Part shown: positions 4,710-64,000 of the stretch, one piece after another
Position numbering within the stretch: the stretch's first letter is position 1
How the letters are laid out: each line of letters opens with the position of its first letter
Assembly (NCBI GenBank): GCA_021081985.1
Contig: GCA_021081985.1_3639.1
Length of the DNA stretch: 64,000 nucleotides
Direction: 5' to 3' (one strand)
From: a phage
The notes under the pieces: model-generated
What the model was told of the DNA's origin: nothing
Seen by the model: the letters and a program-made list of their open reading frames with translations, nothing else
Database searches by the model: none
Translations under genes and position numbers: made by a program

Positions 4710-5147
4710 TCACTGTCGCTCTAACAAATCTTCTGCTGGATAAGCATACAGCATGTATTCCCAACCACGATGGTAATGTCTGTGTTGCCAGTTGATTAAT
4801 TTTAGACACACAATGTTCACCACGTTCCTGTCCCCATGGATAAAAACACAAGTCTCAAGGATTGACTTTCCAAACTCAACATGACTGTCAAGATACAGTT
4901 TTGTGTTGTATCTTTTTTCAGCATCCAGCATGATCTGTTTCAAGGCCAGAAATGCCTCGCAACACACAGATTTTTCATCAGAAATCATTTTGATATTCAA
5001 GCATTCACCCCCACACAGGCAACCACGCAAATCGTGTCTGATCACCACAACACAATCGGTTTGAAACAAACCTGTTTGACACACAACAGGCATCGTCGTA
5101 GTGTCATGCCTAAACACAGACAGATATGATACGACGAAGATCCCCAC
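4710..5147 (-). CDS. hypothetical Cys-rich protein
   Basis: 145 aa ORF, several Cys pairs; first gene downstream of the AT-rich control region on the minus strand. Confidence 0.4.
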   Translation of the reverse strand: MGIFVVSYLSVFRHDTTTMPVVCQTGLFQTDCVVVIRHDLRGCLCGGECLNIKMISDEKSVCCEAFLALKQIMLDAEKRYNTKLYLDSHVEFGKSILETCVFIHGDRNVVNIVCLKLINWQHRHYHRGWEYMLYAYPAEDLLERQ

Positions 5148-5362
5148 ACAGAGTCACATAGTGACTTGTGACAACCCGAATCCATGATTGAGATAAACAC
5201 ACAGAGACAAACCTGTAGGGTTTGTTGATGTGGGTTTATCTCAGAATGGCTCATGAGGGTTAGATGATCACAAGCTATCAGCGCAGTGAGCATCTTACAC
5301 ACTCACGTATTGCCTGAAGAGTCTCATCGACTCATGCTTTCAGGCAAAACACTATGAACTCT

Positions 5363-5406
5363 ATGATTCGAAATCATCGAACCATACGATTCGACTCAAT
5401 CGAATC
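5363..5406. repeat. palindromes ATGATTcgaAATCAT and GATTCGA-n5-TCGAATC
   Basis: Perfect inverted repeats read directly in the divergent intergenic region. Confidence 0.6.
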
Positions 5407-5493
5407 ATATCAACAAAAATATTTAAAATCAAGTCTTGACATTCTTCAAGACTTAATGTATTTTAAATAAATTTTATATAATATATTATTATA

Positions 5494-5596
5494 TATAATA
5501 CGTAGTATTATATTATATTAAATTATATTATATAATTTATATTATATTAGATCATATTAAATAGATCATAGTATTATAATACGTAGTATTATATTT
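5494..5596. repeat. AT-rich direct repeats (aatacgtagtattatat x2, tagatcat x2)
   Basis: Two copies of a 17-19 nt unit about 80 bp apart in an almost pure AT stretch. Confidence 0.6.
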
Positions 5597-9626: not shown

Positions 9627-9702
9627 GGCCCCTTAGCTCAGTGGTTAGAGCAGGTGACTCATAATCGCTTGGTCGCTGGTTAAAGTCCAGCAGGGGCCAC
9701 CA
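9627..9702 (+). tRNA. tRNA-Met (CAU)
   Basis: Acceptor GGCCCCT/AGGGGCC, anticodon loop CTCATAA, T-arm GGTTAAAGTCC, encoded CCA. Confidence 0.8.
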
Positions 9703-9754
9703 AATGTGGCACACGAAATAAACTAGGTTTATTGTTTTCGGAGGAGAAAACTTA

Positions 9755-10078
9755 ATGGCTAAGAAACAGTCTGCTAAAAAGGTATCAGCTATCGAGGCGA
9801 TCAAGCAACCTTTTCAGTTTGAATCAAAATCCACGCAGACACATTCTGCACCGCACGATGTGCGTCTTGGTGGCAAAACGCAAACTGTAGCAGTTCTGAA
9901 AAAACGCAAAGATGAAGACGGTAATACTGAAATGTATTATGAATCTGTGTCTCGTGTCATTGGTGGTGAAGTGATTTCTGCTTCCTATCGTATCCGTACT
10001 GGGAAAACAAAGCGTGAACGAGAAGTGAAACAGAAAACAAGCACTCCTGTAGGAAACGTTAAGAAAACTAAAAAATAA
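9755..10078 (+). CDS. hypothetical Lys-rich basic protein
   Basis: 107 aa ORF directly after tRNA-Met. Confidence 0.4.
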   Translation: MAKKQSAKKVSAIEAIKQPFQFESKSTQTHSAPHDVRLGGKTQTVAVLKKRKDEDGNTEMYYESVSRVIGGEVISASYRIRTGKTKREREVKQKTSTPVGNVKKTKK

Positions 10079-10154
10079 TTTACTGACGAGAGTGCCACCG
10101 TGAGCCAGCGTCATTAAACAAAGGGAATCACGGACATTCAGGAGGGTTGAGATT

Positions 10155-10346
10155 ATGATAGGATCTTTGCTTAAGATTGCAAGCGATGTAACAACAACGG
10201 CTGTTGAAGTGACTGCTGCGGTAACAACTCCGTTTGTTGATTTAGCATCAGATGCTATAGCAGCAGCAGACGAGATGATTTTGTCACCGACATCTGATCT
10301 TGTCCAAGATCTTTGTGATTCTATAAAAGATGCTGTAAAAGATTAA
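10155..10346 (+). CDS. hypothetical small acidic protein
   Basis: 63 aa, rich in Asp/Glu/Ala/Thr. Confidence 0.35.
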   Translation: MIGSLLKIASDVTTTAVEVTAAVTTPFVDLASDAIAAADEMILSPTSDLVQDLCDSIKDAVKD

Positions 10347-10354
10347 AATTTTTC

Positions 10355-10383
10355 TTGACATAGTTTTTGTTTTTCTGTATAGT
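10355..10383 (+). promoter_or_regulatory. sigma70-like promoter
   Basis: TTGACA, 17 nt, TATAGT. Confidence 0.55.
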
Positions 10384-10419
10384 TACTTTATCAAAGCTAA
10401 TTTACATAGGAGAGATTGA

Positions 10420-11067
10420 ATGTCTACTAAGATTTCCGTAACTCGTGCACTTGCTTCTATCTCTAAGATTGAAGATAAGATCAATAAGCGCATTTATAAC
10501 CTTGAATGTATTAAGATTGCAAAAGGAACTGAGAATAATTGTAAGATTCCTGGTTATATCGGCTCTGTTGATGATTTTAAGAAATCTGCGATCAACGACT
10601 ATCAAAGTCTGCAAGACCTCTTGGCAGTTCGCGATGAACTGAAGGCAAAAATTGTCAAGTCTAATGCTGAGACAATTGTCAAAATTGGTAAGGTGTCTAT
10701 GACAGTTGCTGAGGCAATCGAACGCAAACGGACGATTTGCTTTAAACAAGAGTTGTTAAACAAACTTTGTGCACAGCGTGCTTCTGCACAGCTTCTTCTG
10801 GCAAAAGAAGAAAAATCTCTGGAAGATAAACTTGAAAATGCCAGAGCGCCATATATCCAACGTGATAAAGCGCCAGATGCAGAGCAGATTAAGACTGTGG
10901 AAGCTCCCATTCGAATGATGAACACACCATCGGTTGTGGATCCTCTTGAACTGGCTTCTAAGATTCGTTCTCTTGAAGAAGAGATTGAAGATTTCTTGTC
11001 TAACGTTGATTTTGCGTTGTCTGAGTCAAACGCTAAGACAGAAATTGAGATTGAGCACTCTCTCTAA
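10420..11067 (+). CDS. hypothetical coiled-coil protein
   Basis: 215 aa, charged and helix-rich. Confidence 0.5.
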   Translation: MSTKISVTRALASISKIEDKINKRIYNLECIKIAKGTENNCKIPGYIGSVDDFKKSAINDYQSLQDLLAVRDELKAKIVKSNAETIVKIGKVSMTVAEAIERKRTICFKQELLNKLCAQRASAQLLLAKEEKSLEDKLENARAPYIQRDKAPDAEQIKTVEAPIRMMNTPSVVDPLELASKIRSLEEEIEDFLSNVDFALSESNAKTEIEIEHSL

Positions 11068-11432
11068 AAGGCTCTGATAATATCATTATCGTTCCTTTGT
11101 TTTGAAATTTAAAACATTGCTTTTGATTAACGAAGTTTACATCATCTTGCCTCCTGGGGATTGGAGGTTAAATATTCCCCACCATGTATCGTATATGTAT
11201 GAGGATAATACAGAACATAGATGCAGCGAGGCACACGAAGATGCTTTGTTGTTTCCACTAAGTAAAAGTTCATACAATAAAGGTCAATGGTTAAATGTGA
11301 AAGATGAAACTTGAAAGTTGACTCTTGAAAGATAAAATTTCGTTTATCATCTGAAATCCTTGACACAGGTTATGGCTCACAAGATATGGTCTGTAAAGCC
11401 TCAAGGCTGTTAATCGGAAGCAATGTCTTATT

Positions 11433-11507
11433 GCTCGTATAGCTCAACGGTAGAGCACCTGCCTTGTAAGCAGGGGGTTGCAGGTTCGAAACCTGCTGCG
11501 AGCACCA
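11433..11507 (+). tRNA. tRNA-Thr (UGU)
   Basis: Acceptor GCTCGTA/TGCGAGC, D-arm GCTC..GAGC, anticodon loop CTTGTAA, T-arm GCAGGTTCGAAACCTGC, CCA. Confidence 0.8.
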
Positions 11508-11509
11508 AT

Positions 11510-11606
11510 GCTGGGTAAGCCCTTTGGCAAGGGCGAGGATTTATAATCCTGAAAATAGACGGGCTAGCCGTTGAATACATAGGTGGTTCGATTCCATCAC
11601 CCAGCC
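11510..11606 (+). ncRNA. non-canonical tRNA-like RNA
   Basis: tRNA-type acceptor (GCTGGGT/ACCCAGC), D-arm and T-arm (GGTGGTTCGATTCCATC), but the anticodon position is a closed hairpin AGGATT-tat-AATCCT followed by a second tight hairpin; about 97 nt, no CCA. Confidence 0.4.
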
Positions 11607-11807
11607 ACAAGTTTGTTTTATAGTGTATTAGCTTATATTATTCGATATAAATGCCTGATCAGCATTTGTTGTGAATGAGGCATACAATGCGTGAGAAAGC
11701 TATCGGTGCGCAACGTTGATTTCAAACGTAGTCATGCTCGTAGAGCACCAACTGTGGAAGTTGGAGGGTGGTTGAGTAACCATACACTATAAAGCATTCT
11801 TTAAAAT

Positions 11808-11892
11808 GGGCGGTGTCCCCACACAAGTCTTCTAAACTTGTACTTAAAAAGTGGGAAGGAAGTGAGAGGTTCGATTCCTCCACCGTCTACCA
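11808..11892 (+). ncRNA. non-canonical tRNA-like RNA
   Basis: 3' end TTCGATTCC...ACCGTCTACCA with a pairing 5' segment GGGCGGT, no D-arm, internal hairpin ACAAGT-cttctaa-ACTTGT. Confidence 0.3.
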
Positions 11893-11968
11893 GATTAACC
11901 CCAACTTGAGAATCGTCAGCGCGGCTCGTAAGACCCACTCTATAGGTTCTCTACCTGGGGTGCTTATT

Positions 11969-12045
11969 GCACGGTTGCCGGAATTTGGTTACGGGTCTGT
12001 CTGCAAAACGGATATATGTCGGTTCAAGTCCGACACCGTGCTCCA
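11969..12045 (+). tRNA. tRNA-Cys (GCA)
   Basis: Acceptor GCACGGT/ACCGTGC, anticodon arm TCTGT-CTGCAAA-ACGGA, T-arm GTCGGTTCAAGTCCGAC, CCA; D-stem imperfect. Confidence 0.65.
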
Positions 12046-12082
12046 AACTTTCAATTTCTTGGCAAATATGTTAAAATACCAC

Positions 12083-12111
12083 TTGACAGATATGTTTTTA
12101 TTTGATAATAT
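12083..12111 (+). promoter_or_regulatory. sigma70-like promoter
   Basis: TTGACA, 17 nt, TAATAT, followed by RBS and ATG at 12132. Confidence 0.6.
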
Positions 12112-12131
12112 CATTAAGTGGGGTTTTTAAA

Positions 12132-12479
12132 ATGGCTACTAAGCAGCTTACAAAACGTAGAAGAGGAAAAGGTCGTCCTCTGAAAGAGGAATCTAATGCA
12201 ATTCAGTTAGAGAAAAATATCCTAGATTTGAAAACGAATCTGATTGCAATGATTCCTGAAGCTCATCAGGTTCTTAGGGATTTGATGAAGAATGTGAATA
12301 CAAAAGACAATATCAGAGAAAATATCGCTCGTTATGTTATTGAGAAAGGTGAGCAGATGCTTTCTGATTACTTTGATGAGGAAAACGAAGAGTTACTCGA
12401 AAAAGATAACTCAGAAAAAGCGCCTATTAAGGCAGCCAAACCATTCTCGACGGATATTGTTCAATTCAAACAAGGTTAA
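12132..12479 (+). CDS. hypothetical protein with basic N-terminus
   Basis: ORF track 12102..12479; start moved to the ATG after the promoter and RBS (MATKQLTKRRRGKGRP...). Confidence 0.45.
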   Translation: MATKQLTKRRRGKGRPLKEESNAIQLEKNILDLKTNLIAMIPEAHQVLRDLMKNVNTKDNIRENIARYVIEKGEQMLSDYFDEENEELLEKDNSEKAPIKAAKPFSTDIVQFKQG

Positions 12480-12480
12480 T

Positions 12481-12570
12481 GTGTCGTTAGACCGTAGGGG
12501 TAGCGGGGGAGACTGTAAATCTCCTGTCTCGAAAGGGACTCGGGTAGTTCGACTCTATCACGGCACACCA
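12481..12570 (+). tRNA. tRNA-Tyr (GUA), type II
   Basis: Acceptor GTGTCGT/ACGGCAC, anticodon arm GGAGA-CTGTAAA-TCTCC, long variable arm, T-arm GGTAGTTCGACTCTATC, CCA. Confidence 0.75.
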
Positions 12571-12638
12571 ACTAAATCTGTACTGGCTTTGATGTGTGAC
12601 GATACCCTCCAATCGTGGTTGTTGGGTCAGTACAGTTT

Positions 12639-12714
12639 GGGAGTGTAGATCAGTTAGTAGATCGCTCGACCGATAATCGAGAGGACGTAGGGGCAGAGCC
12701 TACCACTCCCACCA
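12639..12714 (+). tRNA. tRNA-Ile (GAU)
   Basis: Acceptor GGGAGTG/CACTCCC, D-arm GATC..GATC, anticodon arm CTCGA-CCGATAA-TCGAG, CCA; position 33 is C and the T-loop is atypical. Confidence 0.6.
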
Positions 12715-12719
12715 AATAT

Positions 12720-12794
12720 GCATCCATAGTTTAATTGGGAAAACTACAGCCTTCCAAGCTGAAGTCGAGGGTTCGATGCCCTCTGGATGCTCCA
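12720..12794 (+). tRNA. tRNA-Gly (UCC)
   Basis: Acceptor GCATCCA/TGGATGC, anticodon loop CTTCCAA, T-arm GAGGGTTCGATGCCCTC, CCA. Confidence 0.75.
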
Positions 12795-12919
12795 GTTAAA
12801 AGATGTCAATGAAATCCGCTTGGGTCAACTGAAGACCGTAACAAATTCCATGGGGTTGTGTTTGCGGTCCAACCCTAGACATCTTCTATCTTTAGTAGAA
12901 GGCTTTAATACGGACGAGT

Positions 12920-13150
12920 ATGATGGTTTCTAAATTAATCATAACAAGGCATCATAATGCTAAAGAAATAGAGATTGTGAATGCTGCTGGCACTCTTGTG
13001 CTAAAAGTTGGTAAAGACTGTCCTTTTGAATTGTGCCAGAAGGAACTTTTAAGTTTGTGCGGTTTCAGGTTTAAACAGATTATCTTTGAAAATGCTTTTC
13101 AATATTCAGACTTAAACCAGTACATTATATCTAGGCTTGATCCTGCATGA
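12920..13150 (+). CDS. hypothetical small protein
   Basis: 76 aa ORF, 4-nt overlap with the next gene. Confidence 0.35.
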   Translation: MMVSKLIITRHHNAKEIEIVNAAGTLVLKVGKDCPFELCQKELLSLCGFRFKQIIFENAFQYSDLNQYIISRLDPA

Positions 13151-13704
13151 GATACTTGAAATATTTATCTTGGATCCTGTTAGCACCTCTTGATCCAATT
13201 ATGTCGGCTCTCTGTGTTATTCTGGCTCCTTTTGTTGTTCCGTTCTATAATGAGAAGACAGGGCATCTACCCTATATTTTCAGGTGGATGGAAACATATG
13301 ATAATCCTATAGACGGTGACAGAGGACACATAGAGAGATGGGAAGAAGTCCGTAAAATAGGAAGTTTTGGTGTTTACCTACAACGAGTTGCTTGGTTGTG
13401 GAGAAATAAAGCCTACAATTTTTCCTATCACGTACTTGGACGTGAAATCGCATCTGTGACAAAGTGGAAAGGAAACATCCATGTAAGCTCTGATGTGGAG
13501 GATAATCAACAAGGCTATTTGTTGATGTGGAATGACAATGCGTGGGGTGTATTCGCGTTTGTCCCGTCTTTTAGATTGTTTGGAAAACAATTTTACTGGC
13601 GAATTTATGTCGGTTGGAAACTGAAGAGTGTGGTTCCTGAAGACAGAGCTTTTTCAAGAGAGAGGGTGATGTTGGCATTTTTCATAAGTCCTTTCCGAAA
13701 ATAG
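13147..13704 (+). CDS. hypothetical membrane protein
   Basis: 185 aa, hydrophobic N-terminal segment LSWILLAPLDPIMSALCVILAPFVVPF. Confidence 0.45.
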   Translation: MRYLKYLSWILLAPLDPIMSALCVILAPFVVPFYNEKTGHLPYIFRWMETYDNPIDGDRGHIERWEEVRKIGSFGVYLQRVAWLWRNKAYNFSYHVLGREIASVTKWKGNIHVSSDVEDNQQGYLLMWNDNAWGVFAFVPSFRLFGKQFYWRIYVGWKLKSVVPEDRAFSRERVMLAFFISPFRK

Positions 13705-13710
13705 TTTTTA

Positions 13711-13792
13711 ATGAGAGTAGCGTAACTTCACTGGGTGAAGGCTGGCCTCCAAAACCAGTGACTAAGAGGTTCGATTCCTCACTCTCGTGCCA
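13711..13792 (+). tRNA. tRNA-like, possibly tRNA-Trp (CCA)
   Basis: Acceptor ATGAGAG/CTCTCGT, loop CTCCAAA, T-arm GAGGTTCGATTCCTC, CCA; D-region is over-long and non-canonical. Confidence 0.4.
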
Positions 13793-13793
13793 A

Positions 13794-13869
13794 AGGGGAT
13801 TAGCATAGTGGCCTAATGCAACGGGCTTTGACCCCGTGATCGGTTGTTCGAATCAACCATCCCCTGCCA
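13794..13869 (+). tRNA. tRNA-Gln (UUG)
   Basis: Acceptor AGGGGAT/ATCCCCT, D-arm GCAT..ATGC, anticodon arm ACGGG-CTTTGAC-CCCGT, T-arm GGTTGTTCGAATCAACC, CCA. Confidence 0.8.
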
Positions 13870-13878
13870 AGTTAAAAC

Positions 13879-13968
13879 GGAGAAGCAAATCGATTGGCGA
13901 CGAAACCACATTGGAAATGTGCTGACTGGTAAAACGGCTTGAGAGTTCGATTCTCTCCTTCTCCACCA
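13879..13968 (+). tRNA. tRNA-Ser (GGA), type II
   Basis: Acceptor GGAGAAG/CTTCTCC, anticodon loop TTGGAAA, long variable arm, T-arm GAGAGTTCGATTCTCTC, CCA. Confidence 0.7.
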
Positions 13969-13982
13969 GTTTTTAAGGATTT

Positions 13983-14726
13983 ATGTATGCACTCTCCCCA
14001 AGAAAAAAAAATGGAAAACAGATATTTAATTTGTTGAAAAGCGGAAAAGGCTTCTCAAACCCGCTTCAATCAGGTCTTTCTCTGGTTGGTGGTAAAGTAA
14101 GTAGTCTATCTTCTTTATCTTCCTCTATTTCTTCGGTAACTAACCCAGCTATAAAGGCTCAATTAGCTGCCGCAGGTTTGACAACTGGCGTTTTATCAAA
14201 TTTTACTTCGTCTCTTGGTTCTGTTACAAGCACGACAAAAACGCTTGTTGATTATGGTCAGAAATCTGTTGAAGAGTTCTCCCAAAGAATGCACGCAGCG
14301 AGTAATTATATGAGTACTCTGAGCAGAATGGGAGAAAAGACAAGTTGTTCAATATTTAGTGACGTTATGTCTGTAGCCACTGATTTAGGTAAGAAAGCTA
14401 TGGATGCCGTTAATTCCGCGATGGATGCGGTGAACGATGTTATGTCTCAATTGCAAGATGCAATAAATAAGGGTTTGAATACAATATCTAGTTTGGCGAG
14501 TAAAGCTGTCTCAGCGATAAACAAAGGGATCCAGAAAATGTCTGAGTATGCTAGCCAAGTGACAAAGATGATTGAAGATGAAGCAAAGAAGTTGGCAGAC
14601 TACTTAAAGACAAGTGCTGAAGGATTTCTCGCAGATATCCTACCTGATTGGTTTAACGATTCTTGTAAATCTGGTATAGTTGACCAGATTGCTACACCAG
14701 AGATGAAAGAAGTTCTTAAAAAGTAA
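13983..14726 (+). CDS. hypothetical protein with Ser/Thr-rich N-terminus and amphipathic helical repeats
   Basis: 247 aa; repeated AMDAVN/SAINKG-type helices. Confidence 0.5.
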   Translation: MYALSPRKKNGKQIFNLLKSGKGFSNPLQSGLSLVGGKVSSLSSLSSSISSVTNPAIKAQLAAAGLTTGVLSNFTSSLGSVTSTTKTLVDYGQKSVEEFSQRMHAASNYMSTLSRMGEKTSCSIFSDVMSVATDLGKKAMDAVNSAMDAVNDVMSQLQDAINKGLNTISSLASKAVSAINKGIQKMSEYASQVTKMIEDEAKKLADYLKTSAEGFLADILPDWFNDSCKSGIVDQIATPEMKEVLKK

Positions 14727-14728
14727 TT

Positions 14729-14822
14729 GGAAGATTAACCCTAATTTGGTAAGGGGTCTCCCTGCTAAGGAGATAGTAACCCAGAAATGGGTGTGCCAGT
14801 TCAAGTCTGGCATCTTCCTCCA
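14729..14822 (+). tRNA. tRNA-Ser (GCU), type II
   Basis: Acceptor GGAAGAT/ATCTTCC, anticodon arm TCTCC-CTGCTAA-GGAGA, long variable arm, T-arm GCCAGTTCAAGTCTGGC, CCA. Confidence 0.75.
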
Positions 14823-14901
14823 CTGTATGTCAAGGCTCAGATTTCTTCGGACCTGGGCGTTCGCCTTTGTTGGGTGTATATTCTCGGCAGAGGCTATCTT
14901 T

Positions 14902-14990
14902 GGAGGCTGGGGTGCATGGTGCACAAGCTGGTTTGAACCCAGTCCCGCTGTAGAGATATGGTGACAGTTCGATTCTGTCAGCCTCCTCCA
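14902..14990 (+). tRNA. tRNA-Ser (UGA), type II
   Basis: Acceptor GGAGGCT/AGCCTCC, anticodon arm GCTGG-TTTGAAC-CCAGT, long variable arm, T-arm GACAGTTCGATTCTGTC, CCA. Confidence 0.7.
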
Positions 14991-15213
14991 AGTTATCTTT
15001 AATGTAGCTTGTTTAGTTGCTTGGTGTGATTTTTCGGTGGATGGCTGCAACCATCTTATCGATACCCCAGAGCAGTCCGCTCTTTACTGGCGTAAGCCAA
15101 ACACTTATGATGGTCATGTAATCGTAATCTATCATTAGTGTGCTCTCCCTGGAGAGCTGTTGCGTATAGCTAATTATTGTGTGAGTAATTAGCTATTTTA
15201 AAGATAATTTGAC

Positions 15214-15290
15214 GGATCTGTAGCCAAATGGTTTAAGGCACTCGACTTTTAATCGAGAGATTGTTGGTTCGAATCCAACCAGATCCACCA
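15214..15290 (+). tRNA. tRNA-Lys (UUU)
   Basis: Acceptor GGATCTG/CAGATCC, anticodon arm CTCGA-CTTTTAA-TCGAG, T-arm GTTGGTTCGAATCCAAC, CCA. Confidence 0.85.
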
Positions 15291-15299
15291 AAATATTCA

Positions 15300-15390
15300 G
15301 GTTCTTTGACCGAGTGGTCGATGGTGACGGCCTGTTAAGCCGTTGGGAGGAATCTCCCCACCGAAGGTTCGAATCCTTCAGGAACCGCCA
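15300..15390 (+). tRNA. type II tRNA with GUU anticodon (nominally Asn)
   Basis: Acceptor GGTTCTT/AGGAACC, anticodon arm ACGGC-CTGTTAA-GCCGT, 19-nt variable arm with hairpin GGGAG/CTCCC, T-arm GAAGGTTCGAATCCTTC, CCA. Confidence 0.55.
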
Positions 15391-15474
15391 ATTCTTGACT
15401 TAATCAAGTCACAGATATCACCTAGCCAGCGATACCAGTTAGTAGATTCTGGGACAATTAAAATCTACATTTCT

Positions 15475-15552
15475 CTGTCCGTAGCGCAGCTTGGGTAGCG
15501 CGGGTCACTTGGGATGATCAGGTCGTTGGTTCAAATCCAACCGGACAGACCA
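15475..15552 (+). tRNA. tRNA-Pro (UGG)
   Basis: Acceptor CTGTCCG/CGGACAG, D-arm GCGC..GCGC, anticodon arm GGTCA-CTTGGGA-TGATC, T-arm GTTGGTTCAAATCCAAC, CCA. Confidence 0.8.
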
Positions 15553-15594
15553 ATAAACATATACATATCAAAGCAGAAATGTACAGAGGATACC

Positions 15595-15786
15595 ATGTTA
15601 ACAGTTAAAGTCGTATCTCCAAATGATGAACAAATTTTTTGTGGGAAAATTGTTGGGTATTGTGCTCATCAAAAGTCTATAGCTATTTCAGGTATTGACC
15701 AAAAAGTGTTTTTGTCTGAGGATCAGACCGCTTATGTGATCAATGCCAATGGAAAAACTATTTCTGTGTATCGTGGAAAACCGTAA
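15595..15786 (+). CDS. hypothetical small protein
   Basis: ORF track 15514..15786 begins inside tRNA-Pro; internal Met (MLTVKVV...) taken as start. Confidence 0.3.
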   Translation: MLTVKVVSPNDEQIFCGKIVGYCAHQKSIAISGIDQKVFLSEDQTAYVINANGKTISVYRGKP

Positions 15787-15800
15787 CTCTTAATATAAAT

Positions 15801-15877
15801 GGGCGATTGATGGAATTGGTATACATGTCAGGCTTAGAACCTGAATTTTGGGGGTTCGAGTCCCTCATCGCCTACCA
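15801..15877 (+). tRNA. type I tRNA with UAG anticodon (nominally Leu)
   Basis: Acceptor GGGCGAT/ATCGCCT, anticodon arm TCAGG-CTTAGAA-CCTGA, 5-nt variable loop, T-arm GGGGGTTCGAGTCCCTC, CCA. Confidence 0.55.
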
Positions 15878-15882
15878 ATTAT

Positions 15883-15958
15883 GTGACGGTAACTCAGTTG
15901 GTAGAGTGCCTTGCTGAAGACTAGGTGGTCACAGGTTCGAATCCTGTCCGTCACACCA
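15883..15958 (+). tRNA. tRNA-Phe (GAA)
   Basis: Acceptor GTGACGG/CCGTCAC, D-arm ACTC..GAGT, anticodon loop CTGAAGA, T-arm ACAGGTTCGAATCCTGT, CCA. Confidence 0.75.
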
Positions 15959-15973
15959 AACAGGAAATAGATT

Positions 15974-16204
15974 ATGCGAAGAAAATTGAAGAGTGCATAT
16001 ATCCAAAAAATAGAGACAGTTAGAAAATTTTGTGCTGGGTGGCCTCTTATTCTACTTATTGCCGATTCTAGGTATACTACTCAAGATGTGAAGAACTACA
16101 AGAAAGTAGATAAGTATTGTCGGACAAAGAAAGGAAGACTTGATGGTACTTATGAGATCCATTTTGGTCATCCACCTAGAAGGATTTCTCTTGGTAATAA
16201 ATGA
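15974..16204 (+). CDS. hypothetical small protein
   Basis: 76 aa ORF between tRNAs. Confidence 0.3.
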   Translation: MRRKLKSAYIQKIETVRKFCAGWPLILLIADSRYTTQDVKNYKKVDKYCRTKKGRLDGTYEIHFGHPPRRISLGNK

Positions 16205-16208
16205 ACAT

Positions 16209-16284
16209 TGCGAGTTTGAAGTCTGGTGACTTCGCTGGTCTCATAAGCCAGTCCAGATTGGTTCGATCCCAATACTCGCAACCA
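16209..16284 (+). tRNA. tRNA-Met (CAU), second copy
   Basis: Acceptor TGCGAGT/ACTCGCA, D-arm GAAG..CTTC, anticodon arm CTGGT-CTCATAA-GCCAG, T-arm ATTGGTTCGATCCCAAT, CCA. Confidence 0.75.
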
Positions 16285-18631: not shown

Positions 18632-19978
18632 TTGAGTAAAGTATTTGGACCTGCCAGTCCTAAACAAAAAATGATTTTGGAGAGTAAAGCCCAAATTCTA
18701 ATAATTGGCGGGGCCGCCGGGTGTTTGTCTAAAGACCACGAGGTGTTGACACCATCTGGCTGGATTAAGATATCAGAATGGTCAGGACAGGACATTCTGC
18801 AATATGATAAAGCCACTGGGGAGGCTAAATTTATCCCTCCTTTAGAGTTTGTTAAACTCCCTTGTGAAAAACTTACAAGAATAGAAGGTAATGGTATTTG
18901 TCAAGAGCTATCTGACGAACATACTGTGATTTATAAACCAGACTATAAATCACAGCCAAGAACACTTTCTTTTTCTGAAGTGGCAGAAAGACATAACAAC
19001 TCTGTTAAAAAAGGTTGGACAGGTAAGTTCATAACTACATTTAACTATGATGGGCCTGGGATAGACATGACAGAAGGGGAATTAAGGCTTCAGGTTGCTG
19101 TCATGGCTGATGGGAGAGTTGTTAAAGAAGGGAAAGATAATTATACACAGATGCGCTTTGCTAAAAAGCGTAAATATGACCGCTTAATCGAACTTTGTAA
19201 AAAGTTTGGATTAAGATATGAAGATAGAGGATCAAAACCCAGTGAAAGATATACCACTGGGGAACAGTACGAGGTCATTGTATGGCCTAAATATCCTGAT
19301 AAAAAATTTACAGAGAAATACTATCAGTGTTCAAATGAACAACTGGAGATAATACTTGATGAGATTTTTCATTGGGATGGTTCTTTTTGTAAGCCATATG
19401 GCGGTAAAACACATAATAGCTTTACAGGTAGATATTTTACTGCTCATAAGACGAACGCTGATTTTGTTCAGTTTATAGGATCTTCTCTTGGTTATAATAC
19501 CACCATAAGCCATGATACAAGAAGTGGAAAGGACAGTTATACTGTTAATATTATGGCTAGAGGAAAAGGATTAAGGTCACTGGCTAATAAAGACAGAAAA
19601 GCTGAGTTTAAAGAGTTTATACCTACGGATGGGTTTAAATACTGCTTTGTAACACAAACAGGTTTCTTTGTTACCAGACTAGAAGATTGTGTGGTTGTCA
19701 CTGGGAATAGTGGAAAATCATATCTCCTACAATTGATGCCGCTTGCTTATGTCGATGACCCGCAGACAGCATGTATAATGTTTCGTAGGACAACACCTCA
19801 ATTGACAGGTGCAGGTGGACTTTTTGATACAGCGAAAAGTATTTATTTGCAACTCGATAAGGAATGGAAGCCGAAGTTCAGGGAGAAAGCTCTGGAAGCA
19901 ATTTTCCCATCTGGGGCAAAGGTGTTGTGGAGACACATGGAGTATGAGAATAACAAATTAGATCATCAGGGTGAATAG
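18632..19978 (+). CDS. terL: terminase large subunit, 5' part (N-extein, intein, C-extein segment)
   Basis: TTG start with RBS GGAGG; Walker A split as IIGGAAG | intein | SGKSYLL; translation stops at 19978 where the putative intron begins. Confidence 0.75.
   Translation: MSKVFGPASPKQKMILESKAQILIIGGAAGCLSKDHEVLTPSGWIKISEWSGQDILQYDKATGEAKFIPPLEFVKLPCEKLTRIEGNGICQELSDEHTVIYKPDYKSQPRTLSFSEVAERHNNSVKKGWTGKFITTFNYDGPGIDMTEGELRLQVAVMADGRVVKEGKDNYTQMRFAKKRKYDRLIELCKKFGLRYEDRGSKPSERYTTGEQYEVIVWPKYPDKKFTEKYYQCSNEQLEIILDEIFHWDGSFCKPYGGKTHNSFTGRYFTAHKTNADFVQFIGSSLGYNTTISHDTRSGKDSYTVNIMARGKGLRSLANKDRKAEFKEFIPTDGFKYCFVTQTGFFVTRLEDCVVVTGNSGKSYLLQLMPLAYVDDPQTACIMFRRTTPQLTGAGGLFDTAKSIYLQLDKEWKPKFREKALEAIFPSGAKVLWRHMEYENNKLDHQGE
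18722..19708 (+). mobile_element. intein in terminase P-loop (329 aa), with LAGLIDADG-like endonuclease motifs
   Basis: Begins CLSKDHEVLT (block A-like Cys1), ends VVVTGN followed by Ser+1; internal LQVAVMADGRV and LDEIFHWDGS; flanking residues reconstitute GGAAGSGKS. Confidence 0.7.
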
Positions 19979-21162
19979 CTTGCCCTTCGTGCCTATAACG
20001 GTGGAACTCCCTATGGGAAAATACCGTGCCACAGAATATGGAAATATAAAATCTGGGTGTAACGACTATCTCCGATGAGTGTAGGAGAGTAGAATCACAA
20101 GCGATTGGTGATCCAAACGGCACGCCAAGGATGGAAGATATAGTCTGTTCCACATGGAAACATGTGGCGGGTGTTTTAGCACACCGCCTCAGTGTAGCGA
20201 ACTGAGGGGACAATAAGTTGCAGTATACCTTTATAGGTTTTGATGAGGGTTGGTATTAGCTCTCTTTAAACCTCCCTAATTGTCGGGGAAACCTTTATTG
20301 TTTACATAACCAAGCAAATGTGGTAACATGTTTGTGGCCTACACTAACTATGTAGGGTATGGTAATATCATGTAAAATTAGGTAATCCGCAGCGAAGCAT
20401 CCCTATGGGATGAACGTTCAACGACTATCGCTTACGGGCGTTAGGGCCAAGCGGTGAGGGAAACCTCCAGTCTTTCAGACTGCCGAAATGGGAGGATATT
20501 TGCGTAATAATATTAAAAAATGTGTTGACTGCCATAGAGAACTTCCTCTTGATAAATTTTTTCTTTCATCAAAAAGTAGTGATGGATATTCTGGAGCTTG
20601 TAAAGAATGCTACATGTATTATAGACTTAACAACTCCAGAAAGAATAAGGATATGATTAAGAAAGAGGATGCTGCCATGTTTATACAAGATTTGGTATCA
20701 TCTGGTGAACTTTTCGAATGCAAAACTTGCCGTAAGAAGTTTTTAGCTGATAATTTTTATACTAAGAGAGATTATGGTAAAGTGTATCTTGCAACAAATA
20801 GATGTAAAAGATGTGAAAAGTTTTACCAAATAGAGAGAAAGTTTGGCATCTCTGAGGAATATTACTTTTCAATGTTGGAAAGGCAGGGGTTTAAGTGCGA
20901 GATATGTAAAATACCTTTGGAAGATTATAAAAATCAAGGGTATAGAGATTTTTTCTCCGTAGATCATGACCATAAGACAGGGAAGATTAGAGGTTTGTTA
21001 TGCGATAAGTGTAACAGGGCTTTGGGATTTTTCGGAGAAAATGAGGAAACACTTTTAAATGCCGCAGAATATATACGCAAATATAAGATATAGTCTGGTC
21101 TGCATGGTGACATGCAGCAGCACGTAGTGGTGCGGGATAAGAGTAGCGATCTTATCTGAACA
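19979..21162 (+). mobile_element. putative group I intron carrying an HNH homing endonuclease ORF
   Basis: Non-coding structured flanks around the HNH ORF; 38-nt core (20383-20420) and 3' segment (21114-21162) nearly identical to sequences in the DNA polymerase interruption; terminase frame reopens right after an in-frame TGA at about 21160. Boundaries approximate. Confidence 0.5.
20488..21093 (+). CDS. HNH homing endonuclease
   Basis: 201 aa; Cys-rich N-terminus and HNH motif SVDHDHKTGKIRGLLCDKCN. Confidence 0.8.
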   Translation: MGGYLRNNIKKCVDCHRELPLDKFFLSSKSSDGYSGACKECYMYYRLNNSRKNKDMIKKEDAAMFIQDLVSSGELFECKTCRKKFLADNFYTKRDYGKVYLATNRCKRCEKFYQIERKFGISEEYYFSMLERQGFKCEICKIPLEDYKNQGYRDFFSVDHDHKTGKIRGLLCDKCNRALGFFGENEETLLNAAEYIRKYKI

Positions 21163-21240
21163 AAAACGACACAATTCACATGGTCACAGATAGATTATCT
21201 GATATCTCGTCTACGTTCAAACTCTAAATATCCGAGCAGG

Positions 21241-62458: not shown

Positions 62459-62830
62459 TTAATTAGCCAATTCAGCATCCAACGACATTATATACTCAGG
62501 TAGCTTTCGGATGTTCTCATACAGCACAATCTCTCCGTGTGTCAATGGCCTGATTTCTTTATCCACACCAACATTATTATGGTAATCCCAATCTGCATCA
62601 ACATGGACGAAGACCTGTGTTCCTCTATTGCCAGCCTTAGCGTCCTTTCTTACGATAATCTCTCCGTCTATTGAAGGTAGGCATCTTTTAAAGAATTTGT
62701 TTAAAAGTTCTTGTTGAATTGCTTCTGCCAAGATCATTTTGTCTTGGCTATCTACGATTCTTTTGATTTCAGAGTCGTTTACTTCAACATCAATAAGTTG
62801 TGTTGTTGTCTGTGTTCCTTTTACTTTCAT
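62459..62830 (-). CDS. hypothetical protein
   Basis: 123 aa. Confidence 0.4.
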   Translation of the reverse strand: MKVKGTQTTTQLIDVEVNDSEIKRIVDSQDKMILAEAIQQELLNKFFKRCLPSIDGEIIVRKDAKAGNRGTQVFVHVDADWDYHNNVGVDKEIRPLTHGEIVLYENIRKLPEYIMSLDAELAN

Positions 62831-62875
62831 GCCACCTCTTCTTTTAAAAAGGTGCTTTTCAGCACCTTACCATTT

Positions 62876-63178
62876 TTAGTGGGAATCTGCCCATGTGTAT
62901 CCACAAAGATATTCTCCTGTAATTAAAACGGGAAGCCCCATTATCTTAGATGCTTTTTCTACACATTTTGTTGCAAGCTCTCCTACTGGGCAATGCAGTA
63001 TCCTGTATTTCCCATACACATCAGGTTCAACAATAACTTTACCTGCTTTCACATAATGCCCGTCGAAACGATGACCTTTTTCAAGCATCATGTCTACATA
63101 GCTTTGTGCAGCCTCTAAGTTAGAATGCTCCGTTATTGATTTAAATCTTTCCGGTACTTGTACCTGTATCTCATCCAT
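62876..63178 (-). CDS. family A DNA polymerase, C-terminal part (motif C to C-terminus)
   Basis: Begins MDEIQV (HDE-like motif C region) and ends GYTWADSH, matching the Pol I C-terminal WxxAH pattern; frame is open upstream of the first ATG. Confidence 0.7.
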   Translation of the reverse strand: MDEIQVQVPERFKSITEHSNLEAAQSYVDMMLEKGHRFDGHYVKAGKVIVEPDVYGKYRILHCPVGELATKCVEKASKIMGLPVLITGEYLCGYTWADSH

Positions 63179-63184
63179 CAGTTC

Positions 63185-63444
63185 AGAGAGTTCGTTACGC
63201 TCTCCCGCACCATTACGTGCATAGCCACAAGATTTCTCCTGTGGGTCGGACTATTTCATCCTCCTAATGTTAAGGAGGCCTCCCGTTTCGACCGCACTTG
63301 CTGGCCTACTCTACTCGCTTTCACATTACTAGTGTGCTTTCGATAGTCTCTGAACGTTCATCCCGTAGGGATGCTTCGCTGCGGATTAGCATATTGAACT
63401 TTTACCACTTTTACGTATAAAAGTCAACTTAGCCTTCCCGTCAA
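63185..63444 (-). mobile_element. putative ORF-less group I intron in DNA polymerase gene
   Basis: About 260 nt non-coding insert between the motif B and motif C exons; contains a 38-nt core (63351-63388) nearly identical to the terminase intron. Boundaries approximate. Confidence 0.5.
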
Positions 63445-63978
63445 TTAAAGAGGTTTTCGACATGCATTACTGCATGAAGCCACAATTTGTTTATGGTAGT
63501 AGATAACCCTCCTGACACCTTGGTCGTACCATCCCCGTTTTACCAATTCCCAATGGAACAGGACTCCCATGAGGTCAAACAATGAAGCACCACCGTTTTG
63601 TTGGTAAGCATTCAGCAGAGAATGTTTAGAACGAGTCCAAATTTTACGCCCGTCCATGCCTGGAATATAGCGTCTGCCATTTGCCTCCCAGAATTTTTCC
63701 AACCACTCTCTACGCATTTTCAACCCGAAGTTACTATCCCAGAATGCGTCTATTACAGCCTGTGCTCTATTAAGGGGGATACCCAGCATTGCGGCTATCT
63801 TAGGAGCTTGTGCTCCATACATAATTCCATACGTAACCCCCTTTCCTCCAGAGCGTGTTACCTCCTTTCCTGCTGCTATTGTGTATGCTCTTGCGTTTCG
63901 TTCATGGGCATCCTCTTCCATCATGATACGTAAATACTCACCACCGTCAAACTCAAAAGCCCCTGCCGCTGCAATCAT
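63445..63978 (-). CDS. family A DNA polymerase, upstream part containing motif B (ORF-track fragment; N-terminal region beyond first ATG and window edge not assessed)
   Basis: TRSGGKGVTYGIMYGAQAPK matches Pol A motif B (R..K..YG..YG). Confidence 0.7.
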   Translation of the reverse strand: MIAAAGAFEFDGGEYLRIMMEEDAHERNARAYTIAAGKEVTRSGGKGVTYGIMYGAQAPKIAAMLGIPLNRAQAVIDAFWDSNFGLKMRREWLEKFWEANGRRYIPGMDGRKIWTRSKHSLLNAYQQNGGASLFDLMGVLFHWELVKRGWYDQGVRRVIYYHKQIVASCSNACRKPL

Positions 63979-64000
63979 ACCTTCTAAGTTAGATCCATCA

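Follow-up and report, generated by a model that had tools for sequence, protein, structure and literature searches.

A probable ORF-less group I intron within motif C of a phage DNA polymerase gene, and a core segment that it shares with a terminase intron

In the 64,000-nt stretch of phage DNA analysed here (the window), a gene for a family-A DNA polymerase is found in two pieces on the minus strand. Motif B (KGVTYGIMYG, 63843-63814) lies within the upstream piece, and the C-terminal segment, which ends with a stop codon at 62876, is separated from it by noncoding sequence, an arrangement that had been described correctly in the initial annotation. The locus therefore raises the question of whether the polymerase is encoded by two genes or by one interrupted gene, and, if the latter, how the interrupting sequence is related to an insert in the terminase gene of the same window, with which it has a 38-nt segment in common. 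The evidence presented below, i.e. the match to group I introns in sequence and structure, covariation, exact restoration of the reading frame and orthology with an intron for which splicing has been reported, makes it very probable that the interrupting sequence is a self-splicing group I intron, inserted within motif C of an essential polymerase, with the splicing of this particular copy being predicted from its sequence.

The borders of the insert follow from comparison with an intron-less allele. The polymerase gene of Raoultella phage Ro1 reads TATTACCAT/GATGAAATT (the slash marks the position of the border), which fixes the borders to the base; across the junction it continues as TATTACCAT/GATGAAATTCAGG, with GATGAA following the border directly. 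The window has CTACTACCAT, then 317 nt, then GATGAGATACAGG, and removal of the 317 nt yields exactly the Ro1 arrangement; the bases flanking the border in Ro1 and in the window rule out other placements. The insert thus starts after U63493 and has G63176 (omega-G) as its last base. It had initially been put at about 260 nt, between 63185 and 63444, because these were the limits of open reading frames.

The upstream exon encodes ...RRVIYYH as its last residues, its final codon, CAT, occupying positions 63495-63493. When 63493 is joined to 63175 the predicted spliced junction is CTACTACCAT/GATGAGATAC and the protein reads ...VIYYHDEIQV..., in which the His-Asp-Glu of motif C is restored, HDE being motif C in family-A polymerases. 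The Pfam DNA_pol_A match covers residues 28-181 of the joined protein and runs across the junction at residues 169/170. In Ro1, CR3, DrSchubert and many other phages the last exon directly follows exon 1; a tblastn search in which the spliced C terminus served as query matched 346 phage records, and in many of those in a spread sample of the 346 the junction is crossed by a single alignment piece with no insert. The methionine of MDEIQV, with which the C-terminal segment was initially written, corresponds to the last three bases of the intron (AUG, 63178), as is apparent from Ro1, which reads ...YYH/DE...; among the homologues compared these three bases are ATG, GTG or TTG. In the unspliced message the frame of exon 1 would extend for 15 codons into the intron, adding KQIVASCSNACRKPL before a stop, such that the polypeptide would end ...YYHKQIVASCSNACRKPL. 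For annotation, the polymerase is best represented as one joined CDS (...63493 + 63175..62876) rather than as two genes, with avoidance of the spurious MDEIQV start and of the KQIVASCSNACRKPL tail; in several GenBank records of relatives the gene is still entered in two parts. Just after the polymerase stop, a GC-rich hairpin at 62849-62868 with flanking T and A runs is a probable bidirectional intrinsic terminator.

Table 1. Positions in the window of the polymerase exons, the predicted polymerase intron with its structural elements, and the terminase introns (helices of the polymerase intron as modelled)
Feature	Position	Strand	Remarks
Family-A DNA polymerase, upstream exon	63493..64000	-	Partial, continues past the window end; Pfam PF00476
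Predicted group I intron, polymerase (317 nt, ORF-less)	63492..63176	-	Rfam RF00028; borders from Ro1 allele
P1	63480..63496	-	Exon CCAU and intron AA (63496-63491) with internal guide UUGUGG (63485-63480); 6 pairs, all present
Q (P4 3' strand), P6, P6a hairpin, start of R (J6/7)	63351..63388	-	P6a hairpin CAUCCC-UACG-GGGAUG
P7 pseudoknot	63249..63348	-	GACUA (63348-63344) with UAGUC (63253-63249); encloses P7.1/P7.2, P3 3' strand and P8
P7.2	63306-63290	-	2 compensatory pairs
P3 3' strand	63284-63279	-	
P8	63278-63260	-	4 compensatory pairs
P9	63244-63225	-	3' peripheral helix, named by position
P9.1	63221-63206	-	3' peripheral helix, named by position
P9.2	63205-63185	-	3' peripheral helix, named by position
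Polymerase, last exon	62876..63175	-	DEIQV...GYTWADSH and stop; first residues are the catalytic Asp-Glu of motif C
terL intron 1 (245 nt, no ORF)	19973..20217	+	RF00028 34.5 bits, below threshold
terL intron 2 (918 nt)	20251..21168	+	After GGU, ends in G; P1 GAGGGU with GCUCUC
Endonuclease VII-type ORF, P8 loop of terL intron 2	20488-21093	+	PF02945, E=4.7e-20

The Rfam group I model (RF00028, Intron_gpI) matches 63502-63228 on the minus strand over its full length (model positions 1-253) with 78.7 bits, compared with a gathering score of 50, and an E-value of 2.5e-18. Together with covariation, the restored frame and the Pfam match across the junction, this result sustains the earlier proposal of an intron, and one of the group I type, in the polymerase gene. 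A structure model was built from six ORF-less homologues (the window, 18-1-2, HMD-6, JEP1, rV5 and Vibrio phage K460), for which RNAalifold gave P1, P2, P3, P4, P5, P6/P6a, P7.2, P8, P9, P9.1 and P9.2; the P7 pseudoknot was added by hand, and two invariant or nearly invariant helices that compete with it (pairs 26-28/346-348 and 43-46/282-285) were dropped. In this model, for which a small alignment (n=6, including four closely related sequences) served both for scoring and, in part, for deriving the structure, 98.5% of cells are in standard pairs and 25 of the 69 pairs carry compensatory changes on both sides. The observed values were reached by none of 500 shuffles, and sliding the pairing partners by 1-3 columns left 34-40% pairing. 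In P7 pairing is complete (100%) and one pair is compensatory. The pairs of P1, which places a U63493·G63482 wobble at the 5' splice site, are invariant in the 6 homologues, as is the terminal G, the homologues all ending ...UG ahead of GAUGAG; P10 is weak (about 3 bp).

The single-sequence fold of the intron has a minimum free energy with z=-3.17 relative to shuffles, and P7.1 (CACA with UGUG) appears in that fold only. A 60-nt insert separates P7 from the P3 3' strand, and this insert, P9.1 and P9.2 give the intron a phage IA-type architecture, which, taken alone, would suggest subgroup IA2. The sense strand of the 317-nt intron contains no ORF of at least 30 aa; on the opposite strand of the region there are 62-aa and 40-aa ORFs that start with TTG and are mechanical calls.

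If the intron follows the standard group I pathway, the polymerase pre-mRNA would fold into a ribozyme in which the internal guide UUGUGG pairs with the exon end ...CCAU to form P1, and free guanosine, held in P7, would attack after U63493. The released exon would then attack the 3' splice site, behind the terminal G63176, so that ...UACCAU becomes linked to GAUGAG... and the HDE motif is re-formed. Since it lacks a homing-endonuclease gene, the intron would be a passive passenger that does not home by itself. One feature of the window copy concerns its relationship with translation. In most homologues the second codon of the intron is a stop in the frame of exon 1 (AAA UAA); the window has CAA at this position, and its frame (63445-63492, minus strand) stays open across P2 and the P3 5' strand until a UAA in J3/4. 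Ribosomes could therefore read 15 codons into P2/P3, and such read-through, with ribosomes following closely, might lower the efficiency of splicing.

Two other accounts of the polymerase locus have to be weighed. The insert could be kept in the message, with exon 1 plus 15 residues and a second polypeptide, MDEIQV... from the AUG at 63178, assembling after translation. The HNH-split NrdA of phage Aeh1 is a precedent for a split enzyme of this type. Consistent with such an arrangement, an ATG stands directly ahead of exon 2, the exons are separate CDSs in several GenBank records, and unspliced split genes in phages are mentioned in work on Pectobacterium phage CB7 (PMC7344957). We nevertheless consider it highly improbable: the break would separate the His of motif C from its catalytic Asp-Glu; neither a Shine-Dalgarno sequence nor a minus-strand promoter was found in the insert ahead of exon 2; the apparent start codon is the variable end of the intron; a complete ribozyme has been kept, with compensatory changes, which would be pointless if it did not splice; and the orthologous CB7 intron is reported to be spliced (PMC7344957). 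The lack of an endonuclease gene and the loss of the early in-frame stop might alternatively be taken as signs of decay, i.e. of a non-functional intron remnant in a polymerase pseudogene. This reading is barely credible given that the window copy has kept every core helix, that its Rfam score is above those of several relatives, and that the exons are undamaged, keep the reading frame and have 94% identity with the exons of isolated, named phages.

The reading of the insert as a group I intron is reinforced by its relatives. The nearest polymerase genes are those of Avunavirus (Av-05, 18-1-2 and TH18), with 94% identity over the polymerase region, followed by those of the rV5-like Vequintavirus phages. 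Orthologous introns at YYH/DE are present in Avunavirus, Vequintavirus, Certrevirus (CR9, CB7), Mydovirus (AV124), Seunavirus (PVP-SE1) and a Vibrio phage, the carriers in the Vequintavirinae including Av-05, 18-1-2, FV3, HMD-6, JEP1, rV5, HeinrichReichert, CR9, AV124 and PVP-SE1. These Vequintavirinae introns have in common with that of the window the insertion site, the guide UUGUGG and the helices, and their P1-P2 region and 3' end are homologous to it; judged by site and sequence, the window intron is the ORF-less allele of the intron found at this position across the Vequintavirinae. In the segments compared, the Avunavirus and Vequintavirus forms are 77-92% identical to the window intron. 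The nearest deposited copy, that of 18-1-2, is 87% identical, compared with 94% for the wider polymerase region including the exons. The window copy is a mosaic, in that P5 and J6/7 are Vequintavirus-like (91-92% for the 5' part), whereas P2, P6a and P7.1 are Avunavirus-like. In contrast with the ORF-less window copy, the P6 loop of the Av-05 and FV3 introns holds an HNH ORF of about 530 nt, and the PVP-SE1 intron has a LAGLIDADG ORF; within Vequintavirus there are three alleles at the site, two of them ORF-less (328 nt and 276 nt) and one of 842 nt with HNH. The HeinrichReichert polymerase has been deposited as a joined CDS around an intron with a homing endonuclease. This kind of motif-C intron is thus already known and the window copy is a further member; since related rV5-like phages have this intron at an identical position, its presence here is well supported and not unusual.

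The intron in Pectobacterium phage CB7 occupies the same site (IIYYH/DE) and has a homologous 5' end and core, but differs in carrying an HNH gene, CB7_50; CB7 also has a second intron, at motif B (GKGVTYG/IMYG), a site that is uninterrupted in the window. The introns at both sites in CB7 were reported to be spliced in vivo, by RT-PCR and Sanger sequencing (PMC7344957).

The terminase large subunit gene (terL) of the window is itself interrupted more than once. The borders of its intron 1 were set by the Av-05 allele, which is without that intron, and those of intron 2 by the 18-1-2 allele, which lacks intron 2. Intron 2 gave two sub-threshold RF00028 matches, of 40 and 29 bits, and with the Rfam model no further group I matches were found in the window at E<=0.01. 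Between the two introns lies a 33-nt exon (20218-20250) that encodes LQYTFIGFDEG, which we read as the Walker B motif. The rV5 terminase record is annotated as a three-part join, and the rV5 terminase gene has been described in three pieces (PMC3606486). The endonuclease VII-type ORF of intron 2 has its AUG where the 3' strand of P3 begins (AAAUGGGAGG), and the Av-05 and rV5 copies of the intron have instead a short P8 hairpin with no ORF. Upstream in the terminase gene, a 329-aa in-frame insert in the Walker A P-loop (18722-19708, plus strand; GGAAG/C...VVTGN/SGKS) is a likely intein, suspected because the P-loop GGAAGSGKS is uninterrupted in DrSchubert; no Pfam family was matched by terminase exon 1.

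The polymerase intron and terminase intron 2 are identical at 37 of 38 positions over the 38-nt segment (63351-63388 on the minus strand and 20383-20420 on the plus strand), as the initial annotation had noticed, with two copies in the window and none expected from shuffles. The similarity that it saw at the 3' ends also holds, residing in the 17-mer GCACGTARTGGTGCGGG, of which there are exactly two copies (63204-63220, minus strand, and 21120-21136, plus strand); this 17-mer marks P9.1 as a second segment common to the two introns. Copies of both the 38-mer and the 17-mer were counted over the whole 64,000-nt window, and each occurs only twice, on both occasions inside introns, such that a dispersed regulatory repeat, of the promoter or terminator type that had been named as a possible alternative, is rejected. 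The 38-nt segment is part of the catalytic core, comprising the 3' strand of P4, P6, the P6a hairpin and J6/7, i.e. the classical elements Q and R. Identity between the two introns is 93% over the Q-P6-R patch, but 50% in the 5' part, 54% over P7.1-P7.2-P3' and 67% in the 3' part, and segment-wise identity of this order leads us to reject kinship over the whole introns.

How the identical patch arose can be considered in the light of how common it is. A scan of IMG/VR with the pattern Q-N(8-30)-R (Q being AATCCGCAGCGAAG and R being GAACGTTCA) revealed that Q and R recur in at least 120 unrelated viral contigs, including giant-virus contigs, so that 23 of the 38 bases are generic and the information lies in the 15 nt of the P6a hairpin. 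Such recurrence would be expected if the segment were conserved group I core and nothing else, held by purifying selection with no exchange between introns. This explanation is unlikely to suffice, because the hairpins between Q and R are highly diverse among the at least 120 contigs; of 2.9 million IMG/VR contigs, one (120,938 nt) has the window variant, CAUCCC-UAYG-GGGAUG, and has it in a terminase intron, and two have the Vequintavirus variant. The hairpin, moreover, differs between lineages and is the same in the introns of both genes within each lineage. Recent copying between the two genes, by an intron family actively transposing in this genome, would readily produce both the 37/38 identity and the 17-nt match near the 3' ends; it is nonetheless very unlikely. 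Outside the patch identity falls to 50-67%, as would not be anticipated for recent copies; the introns are inserted at different sites and have different P1 guides; in related phages the site of each is occupied by orthologues (77-92% identical in the case of the polymerase intron) that are closer to it than the other intron is, implying that neither was recently copied from the other; and the endonucleases differ in family and location, with HNH in P6 of the polymerase orthologues and an EndoVII-type in P8 of the terminase intron. By their sequences the two introns are distant relatives, alike in ribozyme class, with one locally identical patch and a similar P9.1, and unlike in gene, site and guide. 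The earlier description of them as two homologous introns is thus right for the shared core and overstates their kinship outside it.

What the patch may record is revealed by comparing polymerase introns with and without an ORF. In Av-05 and FV3 the HNH ORF of about 530 nt is situated exactly between Q and R, in the P6 loop; in the ORF-less introns a 15-nt P6a hairpin (16-17 nt with flanking G and A) replaces it. Outside P6, ORF-less and HNH-bearing polymerase introns have 97-99% identity in Vequintavirus, with 98-99% for HMD-6 and JEP1 compared with FV3, and 90-97% in Avunavirus, where 18-1-2 was compared with Av-05. The replacing hairpin takes the form CAUCC-GAGA-GGAUG in Vequintavirus and CAUCCC-UAYG-GGGAUG in the Avunavirus lineage and the window, and in each lineage it corresponds to the hairpin of terminase intron 2: in Vequintavirus the P6a sequence is CATCCGAGAGGATG both in the ORF-less polymerase introns (HMD-6, JEP1) and in the terminase intron (DrSchubert, rV5), and in the Avunavirus lineage it is CATCCCTACGGGATG in the polymerase intron (window, 18-1-2) and CATCCCTATGGGATG in the terminase intron (window, Av-05). 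The flanking J6/7 and P7.1 have kept gene-specific or allele-specific states.

These comparisons suggest, with a probability that we put at about even, that the ORF-less polymerase intron is a product of gene conversion between two introns residing in the same genome. Recombination would have taken place via the conserved core elements Q (13-14 nt) and R (up to 17 nt), with the HNH cassette in P6 being swapped for the 15-nt P6a hairpin of the terminase intron, a process that would delete the endonuclease gene precisely while leaving a working ribozyme. The same derived hairpin, found twice in each lineage, is hard to obtain by independent evolution, making at least one polymerase/terminase conversion event the simplest account. 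Two observations run counter to it. The P6a hairpin of the rV5 polymerase intron is private, and a search for a paralogous donor found none, the hairpin being present in 24 records at one place each, which in the annotated ones is at the polymerase gene; concerted evolution is accordingly not universal. In addition, 18-1-2 has the hairpin, but terminase intron 2 is absent from its partial record. The conversion signal is a segment of 15 nt and is compatible with transfer in either direction. Were transfer from the terminase to the polymerase intron, it would constitute a precise route for loss of an endonuclease gene; if conversion did occur, the homing cycle would gain a route by which an intron can shed its endonuclease gene, and the introns described here would be natural evidence for domain exchange between co-resident introns.

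Similar patterns are seen elsewhere. Two unrelated jumbo-phage contigs (IMGVR_UViG_3300045988_135240 and IMGVR_UViG_2706795739_000001) have two group I introns each, and in both pairs the Q-P6a-R patch is 97-100% identical with flanks of 54-67%, a hint that the intron cores of one phage genome may generally evolve in concert. The T4 td, nrdB and nrdD (sunY) group I introns belong to subgroup IA2, and phage Twort has multi-intron genes. These systems resemble the present one in having several related group I introns in essential genes of one lytic phage, with conserved core elements and an ORF that is in a peripheral loop or absent, and they differ in the host genes. Recombination between T4 intron cores was reportedly described by Bryk and Belfort in 1990. 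Both 18-1-2 (positions about 1170-2140 of its record) and rV5 (terL gene positions about 1068-2040) have a third terminase intron, with HNH in P6, that the window lacks; its guide-to-P2 region matches that of the polymerase intron by lineage, the sequence being CAUGCA..UGCAUG for the Avunavirus lineage and CGUGCA..UGCACG for Vequintavirus.

The distribution of selfish elements among close relatives varies strikingly. The window has a likely intein, intron 1 and EndoVII-bearing intron 2 in the terminase gene, an empty motif B site (63825-63826, minus strand) and the ORF-less intron at motif C, two essential genes of a single phage thus being host to three group I introns and a likely intein. 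Av-05 has only an ORF-less intron 2 in the terminase gene, with HNH introns at both motif B and motif C, whereas 18-1-2 has terminase intron 1 and a different HNH intron downstream, an HNH intron at motif B and an ORF-less intron at motif C. The motif B introns of Av-05, 18-1-2 and CB7 are HNH-containing group I introns and lie at exactly the position that is uninterrupted in the window. A free-standing HNH gene of Av-05 (Av05_00131, at 4857-5495 of the Av-05 sequence compared) overlaps the end of its polymerase gene; the window is without an equivalent, the polymerase stop being followed by 62831-62875 (minus strand) and then by a small ORF at 62459-62830. This comparison supports the view that the phage group harbours a dynamic population of introns and endonucleases. 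The suggestion of an active intron family, as made in the initial annotation, can thus be retained at the level of the phage group, whose members differ in their introns and endonuclease genes, but not as transposition between the two genes considered here. With exons that are 94-98% identical and differences in almost every element, these relatives provide a good natural system for studies on the gain and loss of introns and endonucleases. Elsewhere in the window there is a cluster of at least 13 tRNA genes (9627-16279, plus strand), together with weak, sub-threshold matches to tRNA-Sec and tmRNA (13879-13968, 21 bits).
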